The notes below the pieces were generated by a model, which saw only the letters and a program-made list of their open reading frames with translations, searched no databases and was not told where the DNA came from. A stretch of DNA of 64,000 bases, taken from sequence record MN895436.1; one strand, written 5' to 3'. Below, piece by piece: positions 1 through 62,091 of the stretch. How positions within the stretch are numbered: the stretch's first letter is position 1; each line of letters begins with the position of its first letter. Both the position numbers and the translations under genes were made by a program. Origin of the DNA: Escherichia phage teqsoen.

Positions 1-168
1 ATATTTGGCCCATGCCAAATACAAAGCATCAGATTTGATAAAACACCTAATGGTAACTTTAACGGATTAGCTATTGCTCCAAACCTCCCTAGTACATTTA
101 CTCTTGAGATTACTATGAGAGAAATTATCACGTTAAACCGTGCTTCTTTATATGCGGGGACTTTTTAA
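1..168 (+). CDS. 48: Baseplate protein gp48, C-terminal fragment (5' partial at window edge)
   Basis: Open frame from base 1 to TAA at 166-168 overlapping the gp54 ATG (TAATG); position upstream of gene 54 as in T4. Confidence 0.5.
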   Translation: MFGPCQIQSIRFDKTPNGNFNGLAIAPNLPSTFTLEITMREIITLNRASLYAGTF

Positions 169-1133
169 TGTATTCTTTAGAGGAATTTAATAATCAAGCA
201 ATAAACGCAGATTTCCAACGTAATAATATGTTTAGCTGCGTTTTTGCGACAACTCCATCAACTAAAAGCTCTTCGTTGATAAGTTCAATTAGCAACTTTT
301 CTTATAATAACTTGGGCCTAAATTCAGATTGGTTAGGATTGACTCAAGGTGATATTAATCAGGGAATTACCACGCTAATTACTGCTGGCACACAAAAACT
401 GATAAGAAAATCAGGGGTTAGTAAATATCTTATTGGCGCTATGAGTCAACGTACAGTTCAAAGTTTATTAGGCTCATTTACAGTTGGTACATATTTAATT
501 GACTTCTTTAACATGGCATATAACTCATCTGGATTGATGATATATTCTGTAAAAATGCCAGAGAATAGATTATCCTATGAAACTGACTGGAACTATAACT
601 CTCCTAATATTCGTATAACTGGAAGAGAATTAGACCCTTTGGTTATTTCATTTAGAATGGATTCAGAAGCTTGTAACTATCGTGCAATGCAAGACTGGGT
701 TAACGCTGTTCAAGACCCAGTAACTGGATTGCGTGCTTTACCGCAAGATGTCGAGGCAGATATTCAGGTTAATCTTCATTCTCGTAATGGATTGCCTCAT
801 ACTGCGGTGATGTTCACTGGATGCATTCCAATATCAGTGAGCGCTCCTGAGTTATCATATGATGGAGATAACCAAATAACTACATTTGACGTTACTTTTG
901 CGTATAGAGTGATGCAGGCTGGAGCAGTTGATAGGCAAGCTGCGCTTGAATGGCTTGAATCTGCTGCTATAAATGGTATTCAAAGCGTTCTCGGAAATAG
1001 TGGAGGTGTTACTGGACTATCTAATTCGCTTTCACGACTCAGTAGATTAGGGGGAACTGCAGGAAGCATTTCAAACATTAATACTATGACAGGAATTGTC
1101 AATTCGCAAAGTAAAATATTAGGAGCAATATAA
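168..1133 (+). CDS. 54: Baseplate tail-tube initiator gp54
   Basis: 321-aa ORF, ATG start; size and position (before alt) match T4 gp54. Confidence 0.8.
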   Translation: MYSLEEFNNQAINADFQRNNMFSCVFATTPSTKSSSLISSISNFSYNNLGLNSDWLGLTQGDINQGITTLITAGTQKLIRKSGVSKYLIGAMSQRTVQSLLGSFTVGTYLIDFFNMAYNSSGLMIYSVKMPENRLSYETDWNYNSPNIRITGRELDPLVISFRMDSEACNYRAMQDWVNAVQDPVTGLRALPQDVEADIQVNLHSRNGLPHTAVMFTGCIPISVSAPELSYDGDNQITTFDVTFAYRVMQAGAVDRQAALEWLESAAINGIQSVLGNSGGVTGLSNSLSRLSRLGGTAGSISNINTMTGIVNSQSKILGAI

Positions 1134-1137
1134 CAAT

Positions 1138-1167
1138 GGGGACCTTTCGGTCCCCATATTTTTATTT
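1138..1167. terminator. Hairpin GGGGACC-TTTC-GGTCCCC plus T-tract between convergent genes
   Basis: Perfect 7-bp stem with tetraloop followed by ATATTTTTATTT, directly after gp54 stop and after the minus-strand 96-aa ORF. Confidence 0.55.
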
Positions 1168-1452
1168 ACGGAATGAAATAAAAGCAGCAACTGAAGCAAC
1201 TAAACTGTCTTCAATATAAACCTCAATTTTTACCGGAGCTTCTGACTCAAATTTACCTGTTACTATACCCTGAAAAATACTTTCAGTCTGTTCTGGCTTT
1301 GAAAAATTTTCAGAAGGAAAAATTCCGAACTTTTTATCTGTTCCAAAAATTTTAATAAATTCATCGTAAACTGCTTCATTAAAAGCATTATCAGCAGGAA
1401 TAACGCCTTCAACTACAAGTTCTTGACCTAAAAAGCGCAAAGAAGATTTCAT
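1162..1452 (-). CDS. Hypothetical protein (96 aa)
   Basis: ATG start with GAGGAA Shine-Dalgarno; early promoter immediately upstream. Confidence 0.5.
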   Translation of the reverse strand: MKSSLRFLGQELVVEGVIPADNAFNEAVYDEFIKIFGTDKKFGIFPSENFSKPEQTESIFQGIVTGKFESEAPVKIEVYIEDSLVASVAAFISFRK

Positions 1453-1483
1453 TTTGTGTTCCTCATGTTATGCCAGTAAGACT

Positions 1484-1512
1484 ACTATAACACAACACGA
1501 GGGACTTGTAAA
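1484..1512 (-). promoter_or_regulatory. Early sigma70-type promoter (-35 TTTACA, 17 bp, -10 TATAGT)
   Basis: Minus-strand GTTTACA...TATAGT with 17-bp spacer; flanked by inverted repeat cctcatgtt/aacacgagg; near-identical copy at 16791-16819. Confidence 0.55.
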
Positions 1513-3570
1513 CTACATTTTGAACTTTTTAGACATTCCGTTGATGTTAACCAAAGAAGCCAAGATTTGAGAAACTTCGTTTTCCTCTTCTTTTGATTCT
1601 TCTACAAGGAATTGATTAAATCCAGCCATTGGACGAACTTCACCAGTTTCCATTAGATGGTCGCCATCATATACCGATTCCTCTAATTGTTCAGAAGGAG
1701 GAACGATTGTACCTTCTATTAGATACTTGTTATAAGCAGTTTCTTTCATAAAGTACGTGCTCACTTTATTAATCTTCAGTAAAATTCCACGCGGTAGAAT
1801 AACTTCAGCTTCTGATGGAAATCCTGATAAATGACCTGGAACGATAACTTTGATTCGCTCAGCTCCTTTAATTACCATACCCACGCTAGTTTCAGCATCT
1901 TCATTAGCATATGTAGAATGACTACCCATATGCATCAAATCTTCTGCATCAACGGAACCTTCTCCTTCGCCAGAAAATACTGCGCCGGAATCATCTAGAG
2001 CCATATAGTTTTTACCGTGCTCACCGAAAATATTTGGTTTAAGCGATGTGGATACGAAGTTCTTGAAATAGAACATTTTGTTTTCAATATTATGACGCAA
2101 AGTTTTAAAGGTAACTTCTTGTCCACGGTAAAGTGTAGTTCCTGGAGGAAGAACTGAACCTTTAGCGAATGCAGAATCCAACGTCTCGATGTGCTTAATA
2201 GCACGTTCCATATATTCTTCACGGGTAGAATCTGGTTTACCCAAAAGGAACGAGTTCATTTCAACATATGAATCAGCACAATAATCTTCAATTACGTCAG
2301 ATTCAGCCTGAGTTAATCCTTTTGGAGTTACTTCAGTACTTGCGTATTCATATGCCTGGGCAGCAGATTCATTAATCAATTTATAAATGCCATTCATGAC
2401 AAATTGAATAATAGCTACCTTTTCATCTGGTGTGGCTTTAGAACCTTTAACTAAATCATTAATAATTTTCTTAATAACATCAAAGCTATTAGAAATATTA
2501 ATGTCAGCAAGATCGCTTAAAATTTTATCGGTTTTATAATCAAAGAATTCTTTATTCTTTAAATATTCTTGAGAACCTTGATATGTTATATCGCTCTGCA
2601 GCTTGATAGATGGATCACGTAAACGTGCATGGGCCAATGCAATATGATTTCGGAAGCTTTCTAGTTCATAATCATTAGATTTAAAACGAGAAGCACTCCT
2701 CATACCACCGATAGCTCCTTTGCCGAAGTTTGAACCAATCTGAATAACGCCAGAGTTCATTGGTCCTTCTGCTTTATATACCGGAACTTTAGATTCAAAC
2801 TCTTGATATTTCTTAGCGGCGAAGCTATCACCCTGAAGTGAAGCATCGACAGTAGAATATTGAGCTTGTGCTGCTAATCGACGACTAATTTTAGTTTTCT
2901 GAATAACAGCTTGATCCGTGCGCTTATCATTTTCTAAAGCAATAGAAGCAGCAACAGCAACAGCTTTAGGAACAGCATTACCTGTTTTAACGTCTACATA
3001 AACATCACCAACCTTTGATTCAACTTTTGTGAATAACTCAGTTGAAATAGGAGGTACACCTGGAATGTCTTCTAAATTGGCATTTTTACGGTAAACCATA
3101 ATATATGCATATTTCTTATCATAGTCCCAGATTTCCTTTAAGAGAACATATCGACCTGCTCCTTTAGTACGTACTAAACGGTCAGCAATAACTTGCATTT
3201 GACGAGCTGCGCCATTTGTTTTACTCTTTAGTACGCGGAATAGGCATGCGTCGATTTTATACTGTTTCATTGTTTGAAGAGCAGTATCAAAAACGGCATT
3301 AATGACACCAATTGGATTTCCACCCAAGTTTTTAAGCTTAACTAATGATAGTTTCTCATTGACACCTATCATTACGATATGCATCATTTTATCGCCTGGC
3401 TTAACGTTTTTATTTGTATCACCACCAGAGGTGTATGTACAAAATCTAAATCCAGGAAGCACGCTTTCTTCGCCGGCTTGGATAGCAAAAATTTGTGGTA
3501 TTTTATGCTTAGGATTTAAGTTAACAACCGGCGCCGAAGCGCCGTCAAATAATTCTGTAATAAGTTCCAT
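1513..3570 (-). CDS. Alt-like mono-ADP-ribosyltransferase paralog (685 aa)
   Basis: N-terminus MELITELFD shared with neighbouring Alt; C-terminal ART motifs YRGQ, FVSTSL, EAEVILPRG (R-S-E triad). Confidence 0.8.
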   Translation of the reverse strand: MELITELFDGASAPVVNLNPKHKIPQIFAIQAGEESVLPGFRFCTYTSGGDTNKNVKPGDKMMHIVMIGVNEKLSLVKLKNLGGNPIGVINAVFDTALQTMKQYKIDACLFRVLKSKTNGAARQMQVIADRLVRTKGAGRYVLLKEIWDYDKKYAYIMVYRKNANLEDIPGVPPISTELFTKVESKVGDVYVDVKTGNAVPKAVAVAASIALENDKRTDQAVIQKTKISRRLAAQAQYSTVDASLQGDSFAAKKYQEFESKVPVYKAEGPMNSGVIQIGSNFGKGAIGGMRSASRFKSNDYELESFRNHIALAHARLRDPSIKLQSDITYQGSQEYLKNKEFFDYKTDKILSDLADINISNSFDVIKKIINDLVKGSKATPDEKVAIIQFVMNGIYKLINESAAQAYEYASTEVTPKGLTQAESDVIEDYCADSYVEMNSFLLGKPDSTREEYMERAIKHIETLDSAFAKGSVLPPGTTLYRGQEVTFKTLRHNIENKMFYFKNFVSTSLKPNIFGEHGKNYMALDDSGAVFSGEGEGSVDAEDLMHMGSHSTYANEDAETSVGMVIKGAERIKVIVPGHLSGFPSEAEVILPRGILLKINKVSTYFMKETAYNKYLIEGTIVPPSEQLEESVYDGDHLMETGEVRPMAGFNQFLVEESKEEENEVSQILASLVNINGMSKKFKM

Positions 3571-3573
3571 GAT

Positions 3574-5664
3574 TTATCCTTGAACGAACTTGTAAGGCAT
3601 GTTTGTAATATCTATGCAAGACGCAATAATTCCAAGAGATGATTCTACTTTCTGTTTAACATTTGATGAAACAAATGATGCAAAGTCAACTCTATCTTCT
3701 ATATCACCTGTCATTGTAACCAATTCACCAGTTTCCATTAAATGGTCTCCGTCATAGATTACTGATTCGGTGAGTTCTTCTGTGGTCATAACTTCAGCTT
3801 GAATGAGTTTTGTATTATTAGATGTTGTTCCGTCATTATTAGAAGCATCAGTTATTTTATTAACTTTGACCATCAATCCGCGCGGTAGAATAACTTCAGC
3901 TTCTGTTGCTATTCCGAGACTTCCTGGATATACAACATTAACTTTATGCGCGCCGTCAATTGCCCATCCTATTTGAACTTTAACGTATTCAGGATTTTCT
4001 TTATACGCTCTTATTTCGTTTGGATTAATAGTTATTCCTTCTTCATTTTTATCAACTGTTAATTCATTACGAGCTTCTGGTTCTAAAAGACCAATACCAG
4101 CATGTGTAATTCCAAAACGCCCAAAAATGATAGGAGTTAAAGAAGTAGATACAAAATTTCTGAAATAGAACACTTTATTTTTAACTAGCGCTTCGTATAT
4201 AGGAGCAGTCATACTTTGAGCACGATAAACTGTAATGCCTTCCGGTATGCGGTCACCATTTTCAAAAGCTGAATCTAAATTATTTATAGCAGATTCAATT
4301 TCTTTTTCACTCATTACATCATATCGTTCTGGATTGTAACGACCTAAAAGAAGATTATTAATGTCTGTATATCCTGAACCACAATATTCTCTAATGCCGC
4401 GCTTTTGTGATGGAGTATATTTAGAACCATCACGGGCAATAGTAATATCAATCATTGGACCAGCACCAATTCCAGAAAAGCTATAAATCATTCGTTTGAG
4501 GAATTTAGTTTTTGCTGCATTCCAGGCATTTTTAGTTATTTCTTCCCAGACTTCATCTGGCTGCCCTTTACGAGTTTTATTATGTTTATCAAGCCAATTA
4601 TCTTTATATTCTTCAAAGAGTTGATTAACAGCTGCTGCGTATTTCTCTAAACATTTTATTGAAGTAGTTGGTTCATTTTTAATCGCATTAAGAATTACAT
4701 CTTTAATTTTTTCAGAAACTTCATTAACCTCACTTTTTGAAAAGAATTTATAGTCATAATGAAGTTCATCTGCAGTTCCTTCAGCAATAATTTTTGCTGC
4801 CTTAGTTTTAGAAGCTAATGAATTAATTCCAAGCTTCATTTCTTCTGCTTCGGGAATTAAAGGAGCGGTAGCAGGTTTATTGAAATTAGCTGCAGTAGAT
4901 TCATACTTCTGGAATAATTCACTTTCAAATCTAGAAGACTCTAACGATTGACTTTGCGCAATTGCTCTACGGGAAATTTTAACTTTAACGATTACAGCTT
5001 GATCAGAACGTTTATCATTTTCTTGCGCAATAGATGCTGCAATTGCCTCATTTTTAGTTACTTGGGCTCCAGTATCTTTATTGATATAAACATCACCGAC
5101 CTTCGATTCAACCTTAGTAAAGAGCTCGGTACTAATTTCCGGAACCCCTGGAATGTCTTCTAGTGATACATTTTTGCGATGTATAAGAATATATGCATAC
5201 TTTTTATCGTAATCCCAGAGTTCCTTAAGAAGGACGTATCTGCCACCTGAACGACTACGGATAAGTCTATCAGCAATAACTTGAATTTGTCGAGCTTGAC
5301 CAGCGGTTTTAGACTTAAGAATACGGAGCATACAGGCATCAATTTTATACTGACGCATTGTTTGCATTGCAACAGTAAAAACTGAATTGATATAATTAAT
5401 TGGGCTTGGACCAAGACCTTTCAATTTAGCAATTGAACCTTTAGCAGTTAATGTAAAAGGAACAATATGCATCATTTTATCGCCCATCTTTAAATCACGA
5501 TTAGTATCACCTCCAGATGTATAGGTACATAAACGAAAGCCTGGTTGTTCAATTGCATCATCAACGTGAACTGAAAAAATTTGCGGTATTTTCTTCTTTG
5601 GATTTAAGTTTGTAATCGGAAGAGTAGTATCTTCGTCAAATAATTCTGTAATGAGTTCCATCAT
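3574..5664 (-). CDS. alt: ADP-ribosyltransferase Alt (696 aa; packaged RNA polymerase-modifying enzyme)
   Basis: N-terminal MELITELFD with ITE prohead-protease-type site; ART motifs YRAQ, FVSTSL, EAEVILPRG; late promoter upstream; adjacent to gene 30 as in T4. Confidence 0.85.
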   Translation of the reverse strand: MMELITELFDEDTTLPITNLNPKKKIPQIFSVHVDDAIEQPGFRLCTYTSGGDTNRDLKMGDKMMHIVPFTLTAKGSIAKLKGLGPSPINYINSVFTVAMQTMRQYKIDACMLRILKSKTAGQARQIQVIADRLIRSRSGGRYVLLKELWDYDKKYAYILIHRKNVSLEDIPGVPEISTELFTKVESKVGDVYINKDTGAQVTKNEAIAASIAQENDKRSDQAVIVKVKISRRAIAQSQSLESSRFESELFQKYESTAANFNKPATAPLIPEAEEMKLGINSLASKTKAAKIIAEGTADELHYDYKFFSKSEVNEVSEKIKDVILNAIKNEPTTSIKCLEKYAAAVNQLFEEYKDNWLDKHNKTRKGQPDEVWEEITKNAWNAAKTKFLKRMIYSFSGIGAGPMIDITIARDGSKYTPSQKRGIREYCGSGYTDINNLLLGRYNPERYDVMSEKEIESAINNLDSAFENGDRIPEGITVYRAQSMTAPIYEALVKNKVFYFRNFVSTSLTPIIFGRFGITHAGIGLLEPEARNELTVDKNEEGITINPNEIRAYKENPEYVKVQIGWAIDGAHKVNVVYPGSLGIATEAEVILPRGLMVKVNKITDASNNDGTTSNNTKLIQAEVMTTEELTESVIYDGDHLMETGELVTMTGDIEDRVDFASFVSSNVKQKVESSLGIIASCIDITNMPYKFVQG

Positions 5665-5684
5665 ATCCTCTCTAGTGTTTATTC

Positions 5685-5692
5685 TATTTATA
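5685..5692 (-). promoter_or_regulatory. Late promoter TATAAATA upstream of alt
   Basis: Reverse complement of tatttata reads TATAAATA about 20 bp upstream of alt start. Confidence 0.5.
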
Positions 5693-5713
5693 AAATTAAA
5701 GGCCCGAAGGCCT

Positions 5714-5902
5714 TTAATAATCTATAGGTAAGAGAGTACGATATATTTCAAACTTTGGACCTTTTTCATAAGCATCAAAAGTTTCTGTGAATTTATTATA
5801 AGCATATGCATCTATAAATTCAATCATGATTTGTGATACAGAAGTAGAAACATCTCCACCTTCTTTTTGAGCCACGACAATTGTTTCTAAGTAAGCTTTC
5901 AT
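5714..5902 (-). CDS. Hypothetical protein (62 aa)
   Basis: ORF between ligase and alt; stop overlaps no gene, start overlaps ligase stop region. Confidence 0.45.
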   Translation of the reverse strand: MKAYLETIVVAQKEGGDVSTSVSQIMIEFIDAYAYNKFTETFDAYEKGPKFEIYRTLLPIDY

Positions 5903-7362
5903 AAACCAGTTACCTCATGAAAATCACCAAATACATCCTCGAATGTATTAGCTTTAGTTTTATCTTCACGCAAACGAATCGCAATTGGAAGAAATAATTT
6001 AACGTAATCAGTGCGGCCATCGGATTTTAACCAACCGTTGCATTCGCACTCTAGAATTTTTCCAATATAATAATTTTGGTTTTCCATAATGCGAGTACGG
6101 TCAAGTTCATGTGATTTTACGCCGGCTTTATCTTTTAAGCCTGAACCGGCATTTACCTTAATTTTTCCACACTCTGACTCAAGAATAAATCCACCTGCTT
6201 TAGTAGGGTCTTTACGGTGAGGATAAATTCCTACAATTTTTAAATCAACATCAATTACTTCTTTAAATTTATAGAGATTTTTTGAACGAGCATTTTCCCA
6301 TAATCCATCGATATTTTTGAGAATAATACCTTCAAGACCTTGGTCAATATACTTTTTATAAATTACCTTAGCTTCATCTAGGTTATTTACTACTTGGTTT
6401 TCAATTAAAATTACTTTATCATAGCCTGATGTCATTTGTTCTAATTTAGAAAAACGTACATCATATTTTAAACGAAATGCTGGAAGACCGTATATTTCTA
6501 CCAACGGAACATAATCCCAGACCTGAAACTTCATGCATTGAGCTTCTTTTTCTGAAATAGTTCCCTTTAAAGATTTATTAGCGATTCCATTAGAAGTAGT
6601 ACGTGATTCAGCTACTTCAGCAAACTCTTTAGCTTTACTAATTTCAGGATAAGCATCAAAAAGAAAATCTAGGCCTTCTGGCTCCTTTTTAACTTGCTCA
6701 TGGTATACCAATTCGCCATCAATTAACACACCTCCTGGATGAATCTGGCGGGCTTCAGCGGTCATTTTGATTAACTCTTCCTTAAGAAGATCTAATCCTA
6801 GATATTCATTACCAGCTCGTGATAAAAGACGGACATCATCTAATTCATCACCTCTAACTTCAGCAAAACACCGAGCTCCATCTGCTTTTAATTGTGCAAA
6901 GGCTGGAAATTTGATATTCTTACTAATGCCTTTTTCATCATAAGAACTTGCGAGCATTTGAGGTTGTTCAGGAATTAAACCTGGCCAAACTTTGTTTGCA
7001 ATAGATACTGAAGCACCGCATTCAAGGTCTCGCATCATCACTCGACGCAAAACTTCAACATCATCTTTTTTACCATCGGTGATATATCCAGATAATTCCT
7101 CAATTGCCGCATTTCCGGTCAATTTCCGAGTAGCTAACGTGAATTCAATGAAGTCAAGCATATCGGTAAGAGTCAACATTCCAAAACTCTGGGTAGCAAT
7201 ACCAGATTTAGGCCATTTCTTGATATAATACTGCAACCCACGAGAATAAGTCAGACGATATACTCGTTTAAGCAATTCATTATCTTTATTCTTTTCAAGA
7301 ATTGCTTGCTTCTGCTTAGTTGAACCAATAGATGCTATTTCGTTTAGAATTTTAAGAATCAT
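5899..7362 (-). CDS. 30: ATP-dependent DNA ligase gp30
   Basis: 487 aa; N-terminus MILKILNEIASIGSTKQKQAILEKNKDNELLKRVYRL recalled as T4 DNA ligase; adenylation motif KADGAR. Confidence 0.97.
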   Translation of the reverse strand: MILKILNEIASIGSTKQKQAILEKNKDNELLKRVYRLTYSRGLQYYIKKWPKSGIATQSFGMLTLTDMLDFIEFTLATRKLTGNAAIEELSGYITDGKKDDVEVLRRVMMRDLECGASVSIANKVWPGLIPEQPQMLASSYDEKGISKNIKFPAFAQLKADGARCFAEVRGDELDDVRLLSRAGNEYLGLDLLKEELIKMTAEARQIHPGGVLIDGELVYHEQVKKEPEGLDFLFDAYPEISKAKEFAEVAESRTTSNGIANKSLKGTISEKEAQCMKFQVWDYVPLVEIYGLPAFRLKYDVRFSKLEQMTSGYDKVILIENQVVNNLDEAKVIYKKYIDQGLEGIILKNIDGLWENARSKNLYKFKEVIDVDLKIVGIYPHRKDPTKAGGFILESECGKIKVNAGSGLKDKAGVKSHELDRTRIMENQNYYIGKILECECNGWLKSDGRTDYVKLFLPIAIRLREDKTKANTFEDVFGDFHEVTGL

Positions 7363-7628
7363 TGTTCATCCTTTAGAGTTTGGTTTACAGCTCTATTATA
7401 AATCAATTCATCATTAAGCTCAGTCAAAGACCTATGGTACGTGGTTCTAACTTTATTTCCTTGCATCCAGTGTTTGACGTAAATGAAACCTTGCTCTACA
7501 CATTTTTTAAAAATTCGTTCGTCTTTTTGAGCTCGGAATTCTGGATTGCATCTAAAAAATTGATTTACGTGACCGTAATCACGTGTAGTATTACCTTCAT
7601 TTTCATAAATAGTGTGAACAACAAACAT
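7359..7628 (-). CDS. Hypothetical protein (89 aa; 30.1 position)
   Basis: ORF overlapping ligase start by 4 nt. Confidence 0.5.
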   Translation of the reverse strand: MFVVHTIYENEGNTTRDYGHVNQFFRCNPEFRAQKDERIFKKCVEQGFIYVKHWMQGNKVRTTYHRSLTELNDELIYNRAVNQTLKDEQ

Positions 7629-8464
7629 TAGAATGCTCCTTGGAAAATATTATCACCACTAGTAGGTCTATTATACAAATACTCTATGCCACCAGGTTTA
7701 ATATAGTTCCATGTCTGAAACGGATGTGTCTGATATGGATGATATGGATTATAAGGATTAAATCCAGGAGTTCTCCAGGTAGTGTTCCAACGAAAAGAAT
7801 CATTTTTAATCATCTTTTCAATTACATCTTTTATAGCTTTTTCACTATCAAAACTTTCTTTATTTTCCTTTGGTGAAAAAAGCTTATTCTCTACATCGTT
7901 CCATGTATAAACTCGCTGAGCGGTTTTTGGAATACTGTCACGTTCCCCTCGAGCCATCCAATACACAGGAACACGTAATATTTCACTCGCATGATCGCAG
8001 TGGTGAGCGAGATCGTCAATATAACAAATTACGTTATATTTCTCTTTTGCCTTTTTGAACAACTCTTCTTTTGAAGAATCATGACCACACATCATTACTT
8101 CTGAGAAGGCACCAGGAAAAAGAGCATTCAAATTAAATTGACGATTCAGCAGAGCGTCAATAGAATCACCCAATGCTGTAACAGCTACAAAATTATAATC
8201 TTCTTTTAATTTGTTAATTACACACAGAGCATCTTTATATGGAGACAAGTAACGAATAAAATCTGATCGATTGTATTTTTCAATTAACTTGACGCCAAGT
8301 TCTTCATCACAATTAAAAAGTTTACCAGGAGAAATAAATTTTTCATCTTGGATCATTTTTAAAATATGTTCCAACGGAAGATTATATTTCTGAGCAAAAT
8401 AAGGAAGGCCTGATTGCCAGCTTAAACATACTCCATCAATATCAGTTAAAATAGTAGGCTTCAT
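7628..8464 (-). CDS. HAD-superfamily hydrolase-like protein (278 aa; 30.2 position)
   Basis: N-terminal ILTDIDGV (HAD motif I DxDGx); C-terminal aromatic/proline-rich tail NPYNPYHPYQTHPFQTWNY. Confidence 0.6.
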   Translation of the reverse strand: MKPTILTDIDGVCLSWQSGLPYFAQKYNLPLEHILKMIQDEKFISPGKLFNCDEELGVKLIEKYNRSDFIRYLSPYKDALCVINKLKEDYNFVAVTALGDSIDALLNRQFNLNALFPGAFSEVMMCGHDSSKEELFKKAKEKYNVICYIDDLAHHCDHASEILRVPVYWMARGERDSIPKTAQRVYTWNDVENKLFSPKENKESFDSEKAIKDVIEKMIKNDSFRWNTTWRTPGFNPYNPYHPYQTHPFQTWNYIKPGGIEYLYNRPTSGDNIFQGAF

Positions 8465-8925
8465 AGAGAGTCTCTTAATAGGTTTAACACATCAATAAAT
8501 TCAGCTTCGGTTAGTATTGTATCATCTTTTGTTAGACCACTAGCCATGCTGTGCTTCAAAACTTTTCCTTTCGAGGCTTGTAATGCATCACGAAAGCCCT
8601 TGTTTTGAATCGCTGCTTCAAAATATGCATTTGTGTATAATTCTTTCCACGCCGGGGAGTATCTTGAAAATGGAACTCCAAGCCAGAAGAGGGTCCCACG
8701 GTCCTGAGCTCTAGCATAAGACCTTCCAGCTTGTTGGGCGGCAAGCCCGGATAACCCAAATATACGACGTTGTTGTTCAACATTTTTCACCTTGCATCCT
8801 TGGAGGAATCCTTCAAGACCTCCAAATTGAATACCATCCATAACGAAAGGCCAATGGGCGAAATTACTTAATGCACATGATGGCCACCTAAAATTGCTTC
8901 TAATCTCTAACTCAGACATTTTCAA
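8461..8925 (-). CDS. NADAR/YbiA-like (DUF1768) protein (154 aa; 30.3 position)
   Basis: Motif LSNFAHWPFVMDGIQF resembles YbiA DFSNFAAWPIKVDG core of NADAR family. Confidence 0.55.
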   Translation of the reverse strand: MKMSELEIRSNFRWPSCALSNFAHWPFVMDGIQFGGLEGFLQGCKVKNVEQQRRIFGLSGLAAQQAGRSYARAQDRGTLFWLGVPFSRYSPAWKELYTNAYFEAAIQNKGFRDALQASKGKVLKHSMASGLTKDDTILTEAEFIDVLNLLRDSL

Positions 8926-9118
8926 TGCTTATAATTTCAACATCAGCCCAATGACCATAGCAAGGAAGACGAAATTCAACTGGCCAGTTAGGGTCCTTTT
9001 CTAATATAATAGACTCAACTCGTGGTTCTTCATGTTCATCAGTATATGGATTTTTATCTGTTACTTTATATGTGACCTTAATGTACTGAATTCCAAAAAT
9101 CTTATTAATTATATTCAT
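8912..9118 (-). CDS. Hypothetical protein (68 aa)
   Basis: ORF in operon-like array, overlapping neighbours. Confidence 0.45.
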   Translation of the reverse strand: MNIINKIFGIQYIKVTYKVTDKNPYTDEHEEPRVESIILEKDPNWPVEFRLPCYGHWADVEIISIENV

Positions 9119-9312
9119 ACTAATTCCTTTAATCCGTAAATAGGAGATAATTCATCACCCATGCGAAGGTCTTCATTTCCATCTACCCAGGAAACAATAT
9201 AAGCCTCTTTTATTTGAATACCACTCCATTTAAATGGAGGTAGAACCTTAGAAATTAATCCAGGTATACCAACTCCCTTTAATTCAACAGTTTGACCTAA
9301 AAAGAATTTCAT
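9115..9312 (-). CDS. Hypothetical protein (65 aa)
   Basis: ORF in array with 4-nt overlaps. Confidence 0.45.
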   Translation of the reverse strand: MKFFLGQTVELKGVGIPGLISKVLPPFKWSGIQIKEAYIVSWVDGNEDLRMGDELSPIYGLKELV

Positions 9313-9599
9313 TAGAATCTCATCTGAAAACCGTGCGATTTAACATTACCGCCACCAATATCAGAGATATTAATTTCGCGCGCAATTGAAGGGTCAATGT
9401 CAATTTCACGATTGAGTTTAGTGATAGCTAAAGTATCGCGCCCATTTACAGTACGAAACTCTAAAGGACAAACCACATCAACGTAATTTTTAATCGATTC
9501 ACTGGTAGGTTGCAAATGAGCAGGAAGGTCTTTAGGCGCCTTAGAGAAAACCACTTCACAAAAATTTTTGCGGGTATCAAAATAAGTAGTCATAAACAT
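9312..9599 (-). CDS. Hypothetical protein (95 aa from first ATG)
   Basis: Track ORF 9312-9656 trimmed to ATG at M20 preceded by GAGGAAAA Shine-Dalgarno; GC hairpin 9613-9630 lies upstream. Confidence 0.5.
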   Translation of the reverse strand: MFMTTYFDTRKNFCEVVFSKAPKDLPAHLQPTSESIKNYVDVVCPLEFRTVNGRDTLAITKLNREIDIDPSIAREINISDIGGGNVKSHGFQMRF

Positions 9600-9639
9600 A
9601 ATATTTTCCTCAGTAAGGGGCCGAAGCCCCCATTTTATT

Positions 9640-10005
9640 TTAAATATCAAATTCATTAAGAACTACATCAAAGATTGCTTCAAGATGCTCAGGTTTAGCT
9701 CTGTTACTCAGAATATGACGAATCCAAGTTTTAACCAAAAGCTTGCGATTAACGCCATTCCAGCAAGGATGAGTCCCTAAATCGCGTTGACGGAAATCAT
9801 CATCCAGGGCGATTTTAAAGTTGGAACCTTCCGTCTTGATTGAAACCGTGATACCGTTTTCAAATCGCATATAAACGTAGTTAGGAGTCATATACTGTTC
9901 AATTTCGCATACTGATCCATTTTGATGTTTCCAAAGGCAAATAGTATCAATAGAACCTGCAATACCATTAGAAACATATTTACGTTCAAAGTTGATGTAG
10001 TTCAT
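9640..10005 (-). CDS. Hypothetical protein (121 aa from first ATG)
   Basis: Track start is TTG; ATG at M5 preceded by GGAGAATAAA. Confidence 0.5.
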   Translation of the reverse strand: MNYINFERKYVSNGIAGSIDTICLWKHQNGSVCEIEQYMTPNYVYMRFENGITVSIKTEGSNFKIALDDDFRQRDLGTHPCWNGVNRKLLVKTWIRHILSNRAKPEHLEAIFDVVLNEFDI

Positions 10006-10041
10006 TTTATTCTCCAAGATGTTTAATTGCGGTACAGGTAT

Positions 10042-10070
10042 ATAATATCATGTCCTGTACCAAAGTAAAC
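10042..10070 (-). promoter_or_regulatory. Early promoter (-35 GTTTAC, -10 TATTAT)
   Basis: GTTTAC, 17-bp spacer, TATTAT on minus strand; -10 enclosed by inverted repeat ggtacagg/cctgtacc. Confidence 0.5.
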
Positions 10071-10072
10071 AA

Positions 10073-10394
10073 TTATTTTACTACTTTCCAATGCTGCCTG
10101 TCAAGTTTACCAACTTTTTTCATCTTCTCAATTAAGCGTTCTGCACGTTGGCGAGCTGTAACATAATGCCATTCGCCTAATTCATTTTGTTCAATTTTTC
10201 CAACGATTATTGTATTCAATTCATAAATCCAACCAGTAAAGAAATTATGAACTTGAATTGTAAAGGTGAAATCTGTTCCCATACCTTCTGTTGTTTCTAC
10301 TTCATTCAACTGCCATTAAGAACCACATAGTTTCATTATATTTACCATTGAAGCATTTAGTTTTAACTGTAGCGTTCAGATTAATCGTTTTCAT
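10073..10394 (-). pseudogene. Frameshifted or two-part ORF (30-aa ORF with promoter and SD, then 78-aa ORF in +1 frame with TTG start)
   Basis: ATG at 10392-10394 with AAGGAG SD; stop TGA at 10302-10304 overlaps TTG start of track ORF 10073-10309, which has no SD. Confidence 0.3.
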
Positions 10395-10421
10395 TTTATT
10401 CTCCTTTGTTTGTGTAAGATA

Positions 10422-10450
10422 ATACTATCACAAAGGAACCATACTGTAAA
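10422..10450 (-). promoter_or_regulatory. Early promoter (-35 TTTACA, -10 TAGTAT)
   Basis: Minus-strand TTTACA, 17 bp, TAGTAT; inverted repeat cctttgt/acaaagg flanks the -10. Confidence 0.5.
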
Positions 10451-10469
10451 CAACTTTATGCAATCTTTG

Positions 10470-10500
10470 GAAAATAAAAAAGGACTCCCGAAGGAGTCCT
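10470..10500 (-). terminator. Intrinsic terminator-like hairpin (GGACTCC-UUCG-GGAGUCC plus U-tract)
   Basis: aggactcccgaaggagtcct preceded on plus strand by aaaataaaaa (minus-strand U-tract). Confidence 0.55.
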
Positions 10501-10504
10501 CAAC

Positions 10505-10681
10505 TTATGCTTTCTGCTTACCAAAACGAGAAGCATCATCTCGAAGAACCGCACGTGCTCGGCGCATGATCTTCTCAACAGTTTGATTGATACGAGAGTT
10601 CGACCCACGCTTGTAACCAGCGCGTTTAGAATCACCAACTTTCTTTTCAACTGCTTTCTTTGCTTTAGCTTGTTTTGCCAT
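10505..10681 (-). CDS. Small highly basic protein (58 aa from MAKQAKAKK)
   Basis: Track ORF trimmed to in-frame ATG; Lys/Arg-rich composition; terminator downstream. Confidence 0.5.
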   Translation of the reverse strand: MAKQAKAKKAVEKKVGDSKRAGYKRGSNSRINQTVEKIMRRARAVLRDDASRFGKQKA

Positions 10682-10969
10682 TATAAATTCTCTTTTAAAT
10701 GAAAATGCAGGACTTATTGGCATTGCCTGCGCAAGCCCTCAAGGGGGTACTTAGGTTTTGAATATTTACCGACAGGATAACCATAAACCTCGTCATCATA
10801 CCACCAAGACTTACACAGATAACACTTTTCTGACGCATGATAGTAACATTCAAGAGGTACACCGTAAAACTGCCGGGGTCTTAAAACTATAATGATTCGC
10901 AAATCATTAATCAGACAGTTCGACGGCTCCTCGATTTAGCTCACACTAAGGCAGTGAATCTCCAATAAA

Positions 10970-11218
10970 TTACTTCAATGTTACCACAAAGTGACGAACT
11001 GCTTTTCGTGCAGCAGAAGCCAGAGGCTTAGCATATTTAAGTTCATCTTTTTCCTGAAGCTCAGCAGCTAATGCAGTTTGAGCAGGATTCAGATGTTTGA
11101 AATAACGCAGGATTTCAAGAGCTTCGGCTTCAACATCAATAGATGCGCCATAGTTTTCGTGACCATTATTCCATGCGTTTCGTTGCAGTTCAAGAGCGTG
11201 TTGTAATTGTTTAATCAT
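10970..11218 (-). CDS. rIII: Lysis-inhibition accessory protein rIII (82 aa)
   Basis: 82-aa ORF located between the 30.x block and gene 31 as in T4; length matches recalled T4 rIII. Confidence 0.65.
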   Translation of the reverse strand: MIKQLQHALELQRNAWNNGHENYGASIDVEAEALEILRYFKHLNPAQTALAAELQEKDELKYAKPLASAARKAVRHFVVTLK

Positions 11219-11365
11219 TTAAAAATTCTCGTTAGAGATTAAAACTCGGTAGTCACGTTCTTCTGAATTTCATCTTCTTTCGACAGATCTCTCAGTTGTA
11301 GACTACCACATAGAATTGTTCGGTTAACTTATTATTCCGACACCCAATTCATATTATTATTTATA

Positions 11366-11701
11366 TCACTTATAAAGACACGGAATAGCTTTATAGTGAC
11401 AGGTAACGAATTTTTGTTTAATTTCTTTTGGCTGCTTAAGACCCAGAGCTACAAAAGGATGCGGAACGTTTCGAATTTGACCAACTGGAAGAGAAGTCAA
11501 ATCACCAACTTCGCAGAAACCTTCAGGAACATCAGGACCAACAGAGTGAACTACACACAGTTCAGGAACTTCACCTTGAACACGTTTACCGATAATAAGT
11601 CCTGATTCTGTAACTTCTTCATCACCAGCCTGTGCAGGTTCAGAAACTAAAATAACATATTCACCGACAGCACGAATTGGTAGCTGTTGTACTTCAGACA
11701 T
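11366..11701 (-). CDS. 31: Co-chaperonin gp31 (GroES analogue for capsid folding)
   Basis: 111 aa, N-terminus [30 protein letters not shown] matches recalled T4 gp31. Confidence 0.93.
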
Positions 11702-11731
11702 CGTTTTTCCTTTTTGTTAACAGATGAATTA

Positions 11732-11756
11732 ATAATAACAAATAATTCTTAAAGCA
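11732..11756 (-). promoter_or_regulatory. Middle promoter for gene 31 (MotA box TGCTTTA, 12 bp, -10 TATTAT)
   Basis: Minus-strand aaTGCTTTAag followed 12 bp later by TATTAT; about 30 bp upstream of gene 31 ATG. Confidence 0.55.
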
Positions 11757-11757
11757 T

Positions 11758-12066
11758 TTATTTACCAATAAATTGAAGCAAATGCTCAACTTTCATACCA
11801 TTAACAGAAATCAATTTGTCAATAGAAAAACCTCGCCACTCGCCAAGCTCAACATCAAATACTGGAATCATGTCAGTAGATTCTTTCCGAGCAGATTCAG
11901 TCAATTTACCAGTTTGCATGGTTGGCATAAAGTCAGCATCGCGAGTACCTTTCATAGTACGAATAGTACCATCAGACTTTTCAAAAACTACGTTTGAAAT
12001 ACCCATGGACAATTTAGTTTTCAAAATTTCACGAATTGCCACTTTCTGTTCAGTTGTCAGTTTCAT
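11758..12066 (-). CDS. Hypothetical protein (102 aa; 31.1 position)
   Basis: ORF upstream of gene 31. Confidence 0.5.
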   Translation of the reverse strand: MKLTTEQKVAIREILKTKLSMGISNVVFEKSDGTIRTMKGTRDADFMPTMQTGKLTESARKESTDMIPVFDVELGEWRGFSIDKLISVNGMKVEHLLQFIGK

Positions 12067-12303
12067 TTATTTACCTATTACAGTTTTAATATGAGTTGTT
12101 CCACGTTCTTTAAGGGTGGAAAGTAATTTTTGGCATTTTTCTAAATCAGATTTCCAACTATATGGTCTATCAATACTAGTCCAATCAGTTTTATAATACT
12201 GTTTCCATTTAGAGAAAAAATATTTCTTATACTCTACAGCAAACGAGATGTTCTCGTTAGAATAAGAACTAATTGCTGTAAGCTTTACCAAACGAAATTT
12301 CAT
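12067..12303 (-). CDS. Hypothetical protein (78 aa; 31.2 position)
   Basis: ORF abutting cd. Confidence 0.5.
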   Translation of the reverse strand: MKFRLVKLTAISSYSNENISFAVEYKKYFFSKWKQYYKTDWTSIDRPYSWKSDLEKCQKLLSTLKERGTTHIKTVIGK

Positions 12304-12884
12304 TATTCACCACAGAATTCGTTGATATTTTCCCAGTTTAACTTATTCAAGTTTTTCTTAGGAACATTAAACACTTCAATACCTGCATTTCGCAGAATAT
12401 CATCCCAACCAGGTTTATTTTTATCGTATGTTTCGCAATAAACCAGCTTTTTAATACCAGATTGAGCTATCGCTTTTGCACAATCTGGACAAGGAGAAAG
12501 TGTTACATACATAGTAGCACCTTCAATAGAAGAACCATTTCGTGCAGCAAACAAAATTGCATTTAGTTCAGCATGAATTTCATTTTTAGACGACCATTCA
12601 GAGTGAGCGCTCCGGTGTTCTTTTGCCAAGACAAAACGATCAGTTGAACCAAATGATACACATTCGGGCTTATGACCTTGGATGATAGTATGTTTAGGTT
12701 TATTCAGCAACCAACCTTGCTCGGCGGCATAATCACAACAGTTCACACCACCAGCAGGTGAACCATTATATCCGGTAGAAATAATACGTCCATTCTTTTC
12801 AATTACTGCTCCTACCTTCCAGGAGCAACATTTTGATTCTTGTGATACTAAATATGCAATTTGAAGTACTGTACTCGCTTTCAT
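12303..12884 (-). CDS. cd: dCMP deaminase
   Basis: 193 aa; cytidine/dCMP deaminase zinc motifs HAELNAI and PCPDCA. Confidence 0.93.
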   Translation of the reverse strand: MKASTVLQIAYLVSQESKCCSWKVGAVIEKNGRIISTGYNGSPAGGVNCCDYAAEQGWLLNKPKHTIIQGHKPECVSFGSTDRFVLAKEHRSAHSEWSSKNEIHAELNAILFAARNGSSIEGATMYVTLSPCPDCAKAIAQSGIKKLVYCETYDKNKPGWDDILRNAGIEVFNVPKKNLNKLNWENINEFCGE

Positions 12885-13219
12885 TTCATAATCACCAAAT
12901 AAGCAGATTTAGCAGTTTCAACACGATAAATTTCGTGACGAAGTTTAGTTATACTTTTAATAACAGAACTAATTATATTCTGCCCATCTTTAAAGCGGTT
13001 TTTCTTATCAATAAAAATTGCGCCAACCATCTTTTTGTGAAGCTCAACTGGATACTTCGTCACAATAATAGCATCATATACGGAAGGATGAATACTATTC
13101 ACCAGAGTGTCATTCATTAAAGTTATTCTAATGAACTGAGCTGTTTCAGAGTCAAGCGCTCTATGATCGCCAGTATCATTTTCAAGACAATTATCAATTA
13201 TATCAGTTAAATTCATCAT
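12881..13219 (-). CDS. Hypothetical protein (112 aa)
   Basis: ORF with 4-nt overlap to cd. Confidence 0.45.
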   Translation of the reverse strand: MMNLTDIIDNCLENDTGDHRALDSETAQFIRITLMNDTLVNSIHPSVYDAIIVTKYPVELHKKMVGAIFIDKKNRFKDGQNIISSVIKSITKLRHEIYRVETAKSAYLVIMK

Positions 13220-13455
13220 AGTACGCCATACACCCTTTGTGCTTCAACTAATCCATCAAAATCCAATTTGAGATGTGTTATTTGATCACCATCACCTGGA
13301 TTCACAATTACTAATACTGAACGAGGAGTTTCGGTAATAACACGAACTGATGTTTCAGGAAATCGTTCAGAAACCTTATTTACCAATTCCTGTGCAAATA
13401 GCTTAACTTTTTCTTGGAATTCTTTAACAGTAATTGGTTTTTCACTTAGCAGCAT
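13216..13455 (-). CDS. Hypothetical protein (79 aa from first SD-associated ATG)
   Basis: Track ORF 13216-13551 trimmed to M33 with GAGGAAAACAAA SD; promoter at 13485-13514. Confidence 0.45.
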   Translation of the reverse strand: MLLSEKPITVKEFQEKVKLFAQELVNKVSERFPETSVRVITETPRSVLVIVNPGDGDQITHLKLDFDGLVEAQRVYGVL

Positions 13456-13484
13456 TTTGTTTTCCTCATTTGTTTGGTAGAGCC

Positions 13485-13514
13485 ATAATATCACAACTCT
13501 ACCGTAAAGTAAAC
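13485..13514 (-). promoter_or_regulatory. Early promoter candidate (-35 TTTACT, -10 TATTAT)
   Basis: Minus-strand TTTACT, 17 bp, TATTAT. Confidence 0.45.
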
Positions 13515-13516
13515 TA

Positions 13517-13792
13517 TTAAATCGCTTTGAATTCCGCAGTTTGAGATTCAAAGCGAATGTCGCCTTTGATAACTAACTCAGCATCAAGACCGAATACGAC
13601 AATGATATGCGCGGAACCTGGATACAGCGTAATGGCAACAGAATCCACCTGGTCTGGAAGCAAAGTGTTTAATACATGAGTCACTTGAGCATGGATTCGA
13701 AGTTCGGCTGCGTTATCAAGCTTTTCAAACATATTATTAGCGATAATTTGGCTAAACACTACTTCTACGATTTTAGAGTAAGTCGGAAACAT
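13517..13792 (-). CDS. Hypothetical protein (91 aa)
   Basis: ORF in cd-pseT interval. Confidence 0.45.
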   Translation of the reverse strand: MFPTYSKIVEVVFSQIIANNMFEKLDNAAELRIHAQVTHVLNTLLPDQVDSVAITLYPGSAHIIVVFGLDAELVIKGDIRFESQTAEFKAI

Positions 13793-13794
13793 AT

Positions 13795-13995
13795 TTACCT
13801 CGCATAATTTTCTTCAAGCCAATCAATAACATCTAACACATTATCAAAAGTTGAACCATCTACTCTGTCTTCTGTTTCATAATCAAGAACATCTAAGCCT
13901 ACTCTTCCATCAACAATAGGCCATAAACAAAATAGATATTTCTTTTCTTTTTCAATTTTATCACAAAGACGATAAATCTTTTCTATGTTATTCAT
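13795..13995 (-). CDS. Hypothetical protein (66 aa)
   Basis: ORF in cd-pseT interval. Confidence 0.45.
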   Translation of the reverse strand: MNNIEKIYRLCDKIEKEKKYLFCLWPIVDGRVGLDVLDYETEDRVDGSTFDNVLDVIDWLEENYAR

Positions 13996-14184
13996 AAGTT
14001 TTCCATGGTAAAGGCAGTTTAGTTTTCTTTACTGTTAGTTCAACATCAGGATTCTTTTCTCTTAATTTAAGGCATTCCTCCCAAGCTCTGATTTCACTAG
14101 TGAATACACAAAATTGCCCATTACTAGTACCGACTAAACCACTATTTACAATAATAATAGCCCAAGTTTCATGGTGCAAAGCCA

Positions 14185-14185
<1 letters not shown>
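13988..14185 (-). CDS. Hypothetical protein (65 aa)
   Basis: ORF in cd-pseT interval. Confidence 0.45.
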
Positions 14186-15388
<1,203 letters not shown>

Positions 15389-15392
<4 letters not shown>

Positions 15393-15619
15393 TTATTTTT
15401 CTCAACCAATGATTGAATATAATCATGCAGGTCTTTAGATGCTTTACCCCACTTATTTTGGTATTCATTTTTAAGATTAGCACGTGATTGAGCTAATAAA
15501 ACATCATTAGTTGGAGGTAAAGATTCTAATCGTTGAATCTGACGTCCATAAATCATTGCTGCCATCTCTGATTCATAAATCAATCCTTTGAGATGTTCAA
15601 ATTGATGCCATGAAATCAT
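15389..15619 (-). CDS. Hypothetical protein (76 aa)
   Basis: ORF with 4-nt overlaps both sides. Confidence 0.5.
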
Positions 15620-15915
15620 TTACATTTATCCTCTTTTAACTCTTGACGATAATAACATATCATAGTTTTCTGGTCATGTACATATCGTTTTACATCATTA
15701 AGCCAAATACGAAATTCCTGAGAATCTTCAAATGGCATACCGACCCAAGCTTTACCATCGATAACTTTAACTTGCCAAGATAGTTTAGCTTCGTCATATG
15801 ACTTTATTTGCACAGGCCAATTGGGATGAACTGTTTCTTTCTTTACTTCTAGAGGCTTTGTAGAACAACCAACTAGAAGACCAATAGATAATATTACTGC
15901 TGATAGTTTAATCAT
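15616..15915 (-). CDS. Outer-membrane spanin (lipoprotein; T4 PseT.2-type)
   Basis: Signal peptide with lipobox LLVGC; 99 aa; immediately follows i-spanin-like gene. Confidence 0.7.
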   Translation of the reverse strand: MIKLSAVILSIGLLVGCSTKPLEVKKETVHPNWPVQIKSYDEAKLSWQVKVIDGKAWVGMPFEDSQEFRIWLNDVKRYVHDQKTMICYYRQELKEDKCK

Positions 15916-16265
15916 TTAGAAAGGTCCTGGATGTCTTCTGCGAACTTGTTGAAGGAGTTGTTGATTTGTTTTTCAACCAATCCTGGCTTATGAGCCACCA
16001 CATCCGCCTTCTTTGCGTCTTTGCGCAGCTTTTCATTTTCACGCTCAATAGCAGCAATTGCCTCACGATTTTTATTATTCATCGCATCAATATAATTATA
16101 CTGAATTCGCAAATTATTTAATGCTAAAGCGTTTTCATTGGCCGTTTTTGTAATTTCTACAACAGACGTTTCTAATCTTTCAATTTTATTTTTTAAAATT
16201 AAAGAAGTTCCGCCCAATGCAATTACAATTAATAACAAGCCTGCTGTCGTATTACTTAATTGCAT
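15912..16265 (-). CDS. Inner-membrane spanin (T4 PseT.3-type)
   Basis: N-terminal transmembrane helix TAGLLLIVIALGGTSLIL followed by coiled-coil-like charged region; 117 aa. Confidence 0.7.
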   Translation of the reverse strand: MQLSNTTAGLLLIVIALGGTSLILKNKIERLETSVVEITKTANENALALNNLRIQYNYIDAMNNKNREAIAAIERENEKLRKDAKKADVVAHKPGLVEKQINNSFNKFAEDIQDLSK

Positions 16266-60868: not shown

Positions 60869-61471
60869 TTATAGATTAAATCCTTCAAAATCAAGAGTAT
60901 AGATAGTGTATGTTGAATACTTTTTATACTCATATCTATCTGCAATTCTAAATACACTTCCAGCTGGTATCATTACTTCTTGTTCATCTGAAACTAATTC
61001 CATATTACGATAACGATGACTATCCGGAAACTTAAAGTTTGGATTGTATTCTTTACAGCGTAGAGCTTTTATAGCATACTCCTGGAAATTGAATACCATA
61101 GGAGCTTTGAATTCAAAAATAACTTGTGTGTTATACTCTAAACCGGAAGCAAAATGTAGAGCTATATTTTTATCATATGAAGCTGATACGACTTTATCAA
61201 ATGTAATAATATCAATTCCTTGATTTAATACTTGTTTAGTCTCAGCTGGAACACCTCTCCAAAGAGGTTTATCGTTTGGAACCAAACGAGATTTGATTAT
61301 TTCATTTAACCAAGTATGGTCATCTGGCTTATTAGTAATACAATGAATTAAAAGTTCAATTTCAGATAAATTAAACCCTTCAGAAAGTAATTCTTCACGA
61401 ATAGAAGCACGCACCGATGCATCCATTGATTTTATTTTAAAATCTTTTAGTTGCATTACTGAGTATTTCAT
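60869..61471 (-). CDS. modA: ADP-ribosyltransferase ModA
   Basis: 200 aa; ART-like R/S/E arrangement (WRGVP, VVSASYD, QEVMIPAG); T4 ModA length and position. Confidence 0.82.
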   Translation of the reverse strand: MKYSVMQLKDFKIKSMDASVRASIREELLSEGFNLSEIELLIHCITNKPDDHTWLNEIIKSRLVPNDKPLWRGVPAETKQVLNQGIDIITFDKVVSASYDKNIALHFASGLEYNTQVIFEFKAPMVFNFQEYAIKALRCKEYNPNFKFPDSHRYRNMELVSDEQEVMIPAGSVFRIADRYEYKKYSTYTIYTLDFEGFNL

Positions 61472-62091
61472 TCAACTACCTCAATATCATAAACTTTAAA
61501 TGTTCCAAACGAATCGTGTAATTTTTCTTTTGAAATAGAAGTTATTCTATACTTTCCAATTGGAATCATCCATTCTTGTTCACGCACAATCATCATTAAG
61601 TTATCAGTACGCTCTGAATCTAGCCCATCAGTATCTTCATACGTGTACTTGAACTCAGTATTAGGAGAAGAAAGTATAATATCGCTGATATGGTCAGAAT
61701 AATTAAAAGCTTTATCAGTTTTTAAGCGAAGTATTATTTTAGTAAAATATTCAGCATAAGAAAAAGAACATGCTGTGAGTAAACTAGTAGTAAATGAATC
61801 TACCCTGTTCGTTGAAAACACTTCTCCAACTTGTAAATCTTTAATAAGTTCTTCTGTTGATTTTGATATACCACGATATAACTGATAAGGTGATTTAGTT
61901 AAATGCTTTTTAATGATTTTATTCAACTGCCGATGAAGAGCTTCATTCTTTTTGGCTTCCATACATTGCCAAAGAACAGACTGCTCAAAATCAGTAAATT
62001 TTTCACAGACCTTTTTATACATATCATATTGAAAATCAACGCTTTCAGCTTTTATAGATAACTGTTCAACATCTGCAAGATTAATAATCAT
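61468..62091 (-). CDS. modB: ADP-ribosyltransferase ModB
   Basis: 207 aa; YRGISKS, FSTNRV, QEWMIPIG motifs; T4 ModB length and position. Confidence 0.82.
   Translation of the reverse strand: MIINLADVEQLSIKAESVDFQYDMYKKVCEKFTDFEQSVLWQCMEAKKNEALHRQLNKIIKKHLTKSPYQLYRGISKSTEELIKDLQVGEVFSTNRVDSFTTSLLTACSFSYAEYFTKIILRLKTDKAFNYSDHISDIILSSPNTEFKYTYEDTDGLDSERTDNLMMIVREQEWMIPIGKYRITSISKEKLHDSFGTFKVYDIEVVE

Follow-up and report, generated by a model that had tools for sequence, protein, structure and literature searches.

The locus raises the question of whether a short reading frame close to the phage DNA ligase gene encodes an enzyme that removes ADP-ribose and, if so, whether the marks concerned are those of a host DarT-type toxin or those of the ADP-ribosyltransferases encoded by the phage itself. 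The window, which is the whole 64-kb stretch of DNA analyzed, belongs on its sequence to a T4-like Tequatrovirus distinct from T4. The reading frame is T4 gene 30.3, renamed adfN for anti-DarT factor NADAR (PMC11825919, Nat Commun 2025), and publications from 2023 to 2026 already cover the gene as well as its fold, chemistry, and anti-DarTG1 role. The allele described here very probably encodes a minimal, core-only NADAR acting as a DNA ADP-ribosylglycohydrolase against DarTG1.

Reading frame and identity to T4 gp30.3

The sequence read directly is open without interruption from 8925 to 8461 on the minus strand. The preliminary description assigned this frame a 154-amino acid product carrying the motif LSNFAHWPFVMDGIQF; the frame and the motif (residues 17-32 numbered from the ATG) are confirmed, whereas the length is likely to be 152 amino acids. 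The value of 154 is the product of a mechanical TTG start at 8925, and the likely start codon is the ATG at 8919, two codons downstream, which is preferred because the T4 30.3 annotation (NP_049816, NC_000866, 459 nt) and the published numbering of Glu36 and Lys43 agree with it. The positions of the gene, its active-site codons, and the surrounding features are collected in Table 1.

The product is identical to T4 gp30.3 at 150 of 152 residues (99%), the differences being Q22H, which adjoins the invariant SNF motif, and I125M, which is placed near His123. Both positions are variable across the 60-member family alignment, and an effect of either substitution is therefore unlikely. At the nucleotide level adfN alone has a best identity of 99.3% among deposited phages, and the 2.4-kb stretch around it is at most 98.4% identical to them. 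A total of 732 phage records contain adfN, almost always under the label "hypothetical protein", so the functional assignment of 2025 is absent from the databases. The record of Escherichia phage PEC04 (KR233165) contains an intact 152-amino acid adfN reading frame (L015 1501-1959) with no CDS in the deposited annotation.

Table 1. Positions in the window of adfN, its active-site codons, and the other genes and elements discussed
Feature	Position	Strand	Remarks
Alt-like ADP-ribosyltransferase, 685 aa	1513..3570	-	PF03496 match, E 7.5e-20; 42% to T4 Alt
Alt-like ADP-ribosyltransferase, 696 aa	3574..5664	-	adjoins alt.1; PF03496 match; 71% to T4 Alt
DNA ligase (gene 30)	5899..7362		
Gene 30.2, 278 aa	7628..8464	-	ATG overlaps adfN stop (ATGA)
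adfN (T4 gene 30.3)	8461..8919	-	152-aa phage-type NADAR; stop codon 8461-8463, ATG 8917-8919
Last 15 codons of adfN	8464..8508	-	C-terminal α-helix (residues 138-151, AF2 model); intact here
His123 codon	8551..8553	-	last β-strand (VLKHS); invariant 60/60
ORF 30.3', 75 aa	8556-8783	-	within adfN in another frame
Lys43 codon	8791..8793	-	phosphate-coordinating lysine, seven residues past Glu36; kept in 59/60
Glu36 codon	8812..8814	-	catalytic glutamate in motif GGLEGFLQGCK; invariant 60/60
Gene 30.4, 68 aa	8912..9118	-	stop overlaps adfN start (ATGTCTGA)
Sigma-70-like site	10104-10075	-	TTGACA-18-TAAAAT, upstream of 30.7
Putative rIIB/rIIA ORFs, 312 and 725 aa	48175-51302		size and map position only
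ModA	60869..61471		99% to T4
ModB	61468..62091		96% to T4

Family and fold assignment

The adfN product matches the Pfam family PF08010 (Phage_30_3, "Bacteriophage protein GP30.3") over the entire profile (positions 1-138 of 138) with an E value of 7.7e-70 and a score of 233.5 bits, the cutoff being 36. A second match is to PHROG 652 (phrog_652, function unknown) with an E value of 9e-52. The search against the Pfam NADAR family PF08719, proposed earlier as a check on the NADAR/YbiA-like assignment, gives no match to the product at E<=1, and NCBIfam likewise returns no match. The missing PF08719 match is a false negative because Pfam files the gp30.3 proteins separately under PF08010, and NADAR membership holds through profile-profile, transitive, and structural evidence.

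A total of 104 relatives of the product are present in 5.8 billion proteins, all with PF08010; one of these also has a precomputed PF08719 match, and several are labeled "YbiA (DUF1768 family)" by JGI. In the family alignment A1, composed of 60 full-length members with identities as low as 34%, eight members match PF08719 directly (best E 1.5e-7). The A1 profile searched against PDB sequences with hmmsearch has E. coli YbiA as its sole match (E 0.005), and hhalign aligns A1 with YbiA over 91 columns (residues 15-122 versus 27-124) with a probability of 94.2% and an E value of 1.2e-7. The AF2 model of the product contains helices and small sheets only, in the arrangement of the YbiA fold, where small sheets flank a helical core, and includes the helix 138-151. 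Structural comparison matches the model to the Phytophthora nicotianae NADAR with ADP-ribose (8bau; 11.9), E. coli YbiA (2b3w; 11.5), and the Geobacter lovleyi DarG1-type NADAR (8bat; 9.3). The NADAR/YbiA-like identity is thus reproduced in fold and family by hhalign, the 8/60 direct PF08719 matches, and the structural comparison. A methodological warning follows, as the direct Pfam NADAR search misses the phage branch, which is filed as "unknown function" under PF08010.

The phrog_652 profile has 296 positions, of which the product covers only 126-272. Relatives of about 200 amino acids exist among the family matches (P0031, P0033), and some members of the gp30.3 family seem to bear an extra N-terminal region of roughly 50-125 residues.

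Active-site residues and the C-terminal helix

Glu36 and Lys43 align with the glutamate and lysine of the YbiA segment TSEHYFQAQK in both hmmsearch and hhalign, placing the catalytic Glu/Lys pair in the product. The spacing of seven residues between them equals that of E43 and K50 in the Phytophthora NADAR (PnNADAR) and of E88 and K95 in the E. coli C7 DarG1 NADAR (EcC7). The three proteins differ at the residue of the last β-strand, which is H123 in the adfN product, E125 in PnNADAR, and D171 in EcC7. In phage NADARs a histidine replaces the glutamate of the YbiA type and the aspartate of the DarG1 type at this point (PMC11543638, PMC11125620, PMC12945103), and with H123 the product has the residue that marks the phage subfamily. 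H123 corresponds to YbiA E125 because it comes directly after the residue paired with YbiA V124, at which the hhalign match ends; the equivalence reaches one position beyond the hhalign alignment and is consistent with published work. The MAFFT --keeplength alignment set His123 against YbiA His126, but the YbiA numbering in that alignment is unreliable, and hhalign and the literature are used here.

The last-strand residue bears on the reading of the product as a YbiA-type housekeeping N-glycosidase that would clear reactive riboflavin-pathway intermediates and have no role in defense. The glutamate defining that family is a histidine in 60 of 60 members, all 732 close relatives and the four of four distant members with contigs examined (P0042, P0083) are found in phage or phage-like DNA, and phages deleted for the gene show a specific DarTG1 phenotype (PMC11825919), making a housekeeping function of this kind hardly credible.

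At 152 amino acids the product has the core-only architecture of about 150 residues, lacking an N-terminal extension and retaining the C-terminal helix intact. The frame reads to the same stop codon as in T4, and the helix is not lost, unlike in RB69. An allele that is decayed or inactive in the manner of RB69, contributing nothing to the phage, would have a natural precedent in the RB69 frameshift (PMC11825919), and the two substitutions relative to T4 could be viewed in this light. With the full-length frame, the intact C-terminal helix, and all catalytic residues present, there is scarcely any chance that this applies here, and the protein is far more conserved than the DNA, as illustrated by JK36, which has 89% nucleotide identity and only a handful of amino acid differences.

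Published function of T4 AdfN and proposed role of the present allele

Chimeras of T2xRB69 and T4xRB69 place the determinant of DarTG1 resistance in the 3' part of 30.3; T4 and T2 from which adfN is deleted form no plaques on DarTG1 hosts, and RB69 regains plaquing when supplied with ectopic adfN (PMC11825919). [quoted passage not shown] Purified AdfN strips ADP-ribose from DarT1-modified DNA and the E36A variant is inactive, with E36A, K43A, and C-terminal truncation each weakening the counter-defense, and the protein neither binds DarT1 nor has an effect against DarTG2 (PMC11825919). In vitro the T4 NADAR removes ADP-ribose from guanosine and not from thymidine (PMC11125620) or cytidine (PMC12945103), a guanosine-ADPr specificity described in Toxins in 2024 and 2026 (PMC11125620, PMC12945103). 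[quoted passage not shown] The methods of PMC11125620 give the T4 NADAR construct as "gp30.3; residues 1-208" compared with 152 amino acids for T4 gp30.3; the extra length may come from tag residues or from another start site.

The T4 NADAR fails to relieve DarT1 toxicity when E. coli cells are not infected (PMC11125620; PMC11825919), and T4 AdfN protects non-T-even phages only partly, its full activity depending on a further T-even factor (PMC11825919). The absence of rescue outside infection and the partial protection of non-T-even phages mean that the mechanism needs at least one further T-even factor.

The role of an ADP-ribose eraser acting against DarT, put forward in the preliminary description, is thus one already published for T4 gp30.3, i.e. 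AdfN (PMC11825919, PMC11125620). In the proposed mechanism, infection of a DarTG1-carrying host would lead DarT1 to ADP-ribosylate guanines in the phage DNA and block replication, and AdfN would hydrolyze the N-glycosidic linkage joining ADP-ribose to guanine, giving unmodified DNA on which the phage could replicate. Glu36 and Lys43 would bind the distal ribose and phosphate, with catalysis taking place together with the subfamily-specific His123, and AdfN would in effect be a phage-borne orphan DarG1-like type IV antitoxin. Experiments have established this mechanism for the T4 protein, and the present allele would be expected to behave in the same way from its 99% identity and its intact catalytic and structural elements. 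Hydrolysis of guanine-linked ADP-ribose, which the literature describes for the T4 protein, should extend by the same degree of identity to this allele. The phage is predicted to be DarTG1-resistant because its adfN allele is full length, unlike the truncated allele of RB69, and unlike RB69 it should plate on DarTG1-bearing hosts. The resulting annotation call is that the phage carries an intact adfN.

Neighboring genes

The genes are arranged as in T4 (alt, alt.1, 30 (ligase), 30.1, 30.2, 30.3, 30.4 ... rIII, 31, cd), with adfN located within a run of head-to-tail small genes and two genes away from the ligase, 30.1 and 30.2 lying between them. The sigma-70-like site listed in Table 1 is strong, as a consensus match only. 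Gene 30.4 and adfN are probably translationally coupled, to judge from the overlap of the 30.4 stop with the adfN start. The overlapping 30.4-30.3-30.2 layout is also annotated in JS98, Bp7, and JK36, and the overlapping stop/start junctions of 30.4, adfN, and 30.2 are conserved across Tequatrovirus, Mosigvirus, and Dhakavirus. The gene 30.2 product has a HAD-type DxDGV motif at its N terminus (MKPTILTDIDGV), and its tail (NPYNPYHPYQTHPFQTWNY) is rich in proline and aromatic residues. Neither Pfam nor the PDB sequences yield a match to this product, which belongs to phrog_420 (function unknown) with an E value of 1e-93, and has an orthologue labeled "haloacid dehalogenase-like hydrolase" by one depositor.

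The T-even factor required by AdfN might be one of these probably coupled neighbors, 30.4 upstream or the HAD-like 30.2 downstream, with 30.4-30.3-30.2 forming a three-gene anti-DarT module, but this is improbable. The published chimera mapping points to the 3' part of 30.3 alone (PMC11825919), which counts against such a module, as does the finding that the distant His-type NADARs in jumbo-phage-like contigs have no recognizable homologues of 30.2 or 30.4 beside them. The distant members of the family are carried on large phage-like contigs, the longest one read being 308 kb; P0042 occurs in this 308-kb contig and others, P0083 in an 82-kb contig and others, and the genes next to them show no BLASTP similarity to gp30.2 or to anything else at positions 1-16000 of the window except for gp30.3. 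Since the distant members share nothing else with the adfN region, the gene travels alone. A conserved neighborhood was considered as a clue to the AdfN cofactor and rejected, as no partner emerges around P0042 or P0083 by BLASTP.

The reading frame 30.3' is an internal translation product in the T4 annotation and matches PF11097 (DUF2883, E 4e-54) and PHROG 14037. It can be read through in the window, T4, Bp7, and PEC04 but contains stop codons in JS98 and JK36. That JS98 and JK36 break this frame while the AdfN frame stays highly conserved argues against 30.3' as a conserved coding gene, and PF11097 may be no more than an out-of-frame echo of adfN conservation.

ADP-ribosyltransferase genes in the window

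Four ADP-ribosyltransferase genes are present, as first described, comprising two full-length Alt-like genes in tandem, both with PF03496 matches, as well as ModA and ModB. The 696-amino acid Alt is a mosaic relative to T4 Alt, with the first ~250 and last ~100 residues nearly identical and the middle diverged. The 685-amino acid Alt keeps the YRGQ, FVSTSL, and SEAEVILPRG motifs; the corresponding place in T4 is occupied by just the short alt.-1 and alt.-2, annotated as remnants of an old alt duplication. As a full-length protein stands here in place of the remnants, the phage keeps an intact alt duplicate.

The gene adfN is ~3 kb from alt, past 30.2, 30.1, and the ligase, and ~52 kb from modA/modB, with the putative rIIB/rIIA reading frames placed between the gene 30 region and modA/modB. 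In T4 alt and modA/modB lie ~52 kb apart across the origin, and they share the window because it crosses the conventional T4 map origin. The transferase genes and adfN are together in the 64-kb window by T4 genome layout only and do not form an operon.

Alt, ModA, and ModB modify arginines on proteins, whereas the activity of NADARs is on the guanine N-glycosidic linkage. This difference in target bears on a self-regulating arrangement in which AdfN would erase the marks written by the two Alt proteins, ModA, and ModB on host proteins, or RNA-linked marks. Such an arrangement gains some appeal from the occurrence of all four transferase genes within the window and from the removal of G-ADPr from RNA by NADARs in vitro (PMC12945103), but it is very unlikely given the target difference and the distances above. 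In addition, the distant homologues share no other gene with positions 1-16000 of the window, both alt copies included (BLASTP), and the DarTG1 phenotype already accounts for retention of the gene. Erasure of Alt, ModA, and ModB marks, to which the preliminary description had linked the gene, finds no support in the published activity, which is on guanosine-linked ADP-ribose on nucleic acids, and the pairing of these transferases with adfN is rejected as unsupported.

Comparison with known systems

E. coli YbiA (2b3w) is ~21% identical to the adfN product and has a glutamate on the last strand where the phage protein has a histidine, and it is encoded by a housekeeping gene of the host, within an operon controlled by LexA (PMC11125620). 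The Phytophthora nicotianae NADAR (8bau) is a eukaryotic protein of 20% identity with Glu125 in place of His123. The DarG1 proteins (Geobacter lovleyi 8bat and E. coli C7) have an N-terminal extension and a catalytic aspartate on the last strand, whereas AdfN is composed of the core only and has His123, lacking both features of the DarG1 group. Another difference is that DarG1 is encoded beside DarT1, whereas adfN is not; no DarT gene is present near adfN, its neighbors being 30.4, 30.2, 30.1, and the ligase. AdfN works like DarG1 without belonging to a toxin-antitoxin pair, and unlike DarG1 it does not relieve DarT1 toxicity without T-even infection.

Among phage proteins, the AdfN proteins of Bas32 and Bas60 have the same anti-DarTG1 role and guanine specificity as the T4-type AdfN, but they belong to other NADAR clades, were independently acquired, and need no extra phage factors (PMC11825919). 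The closest counterpart is T4 AdfN, which differs from the protein described here only by the two substitutions and has the same position in the 30.4-30.3-30.2 arrangement beside the ligase, the same length, the same E36, K43, and H123, and the same C-terminal helix.
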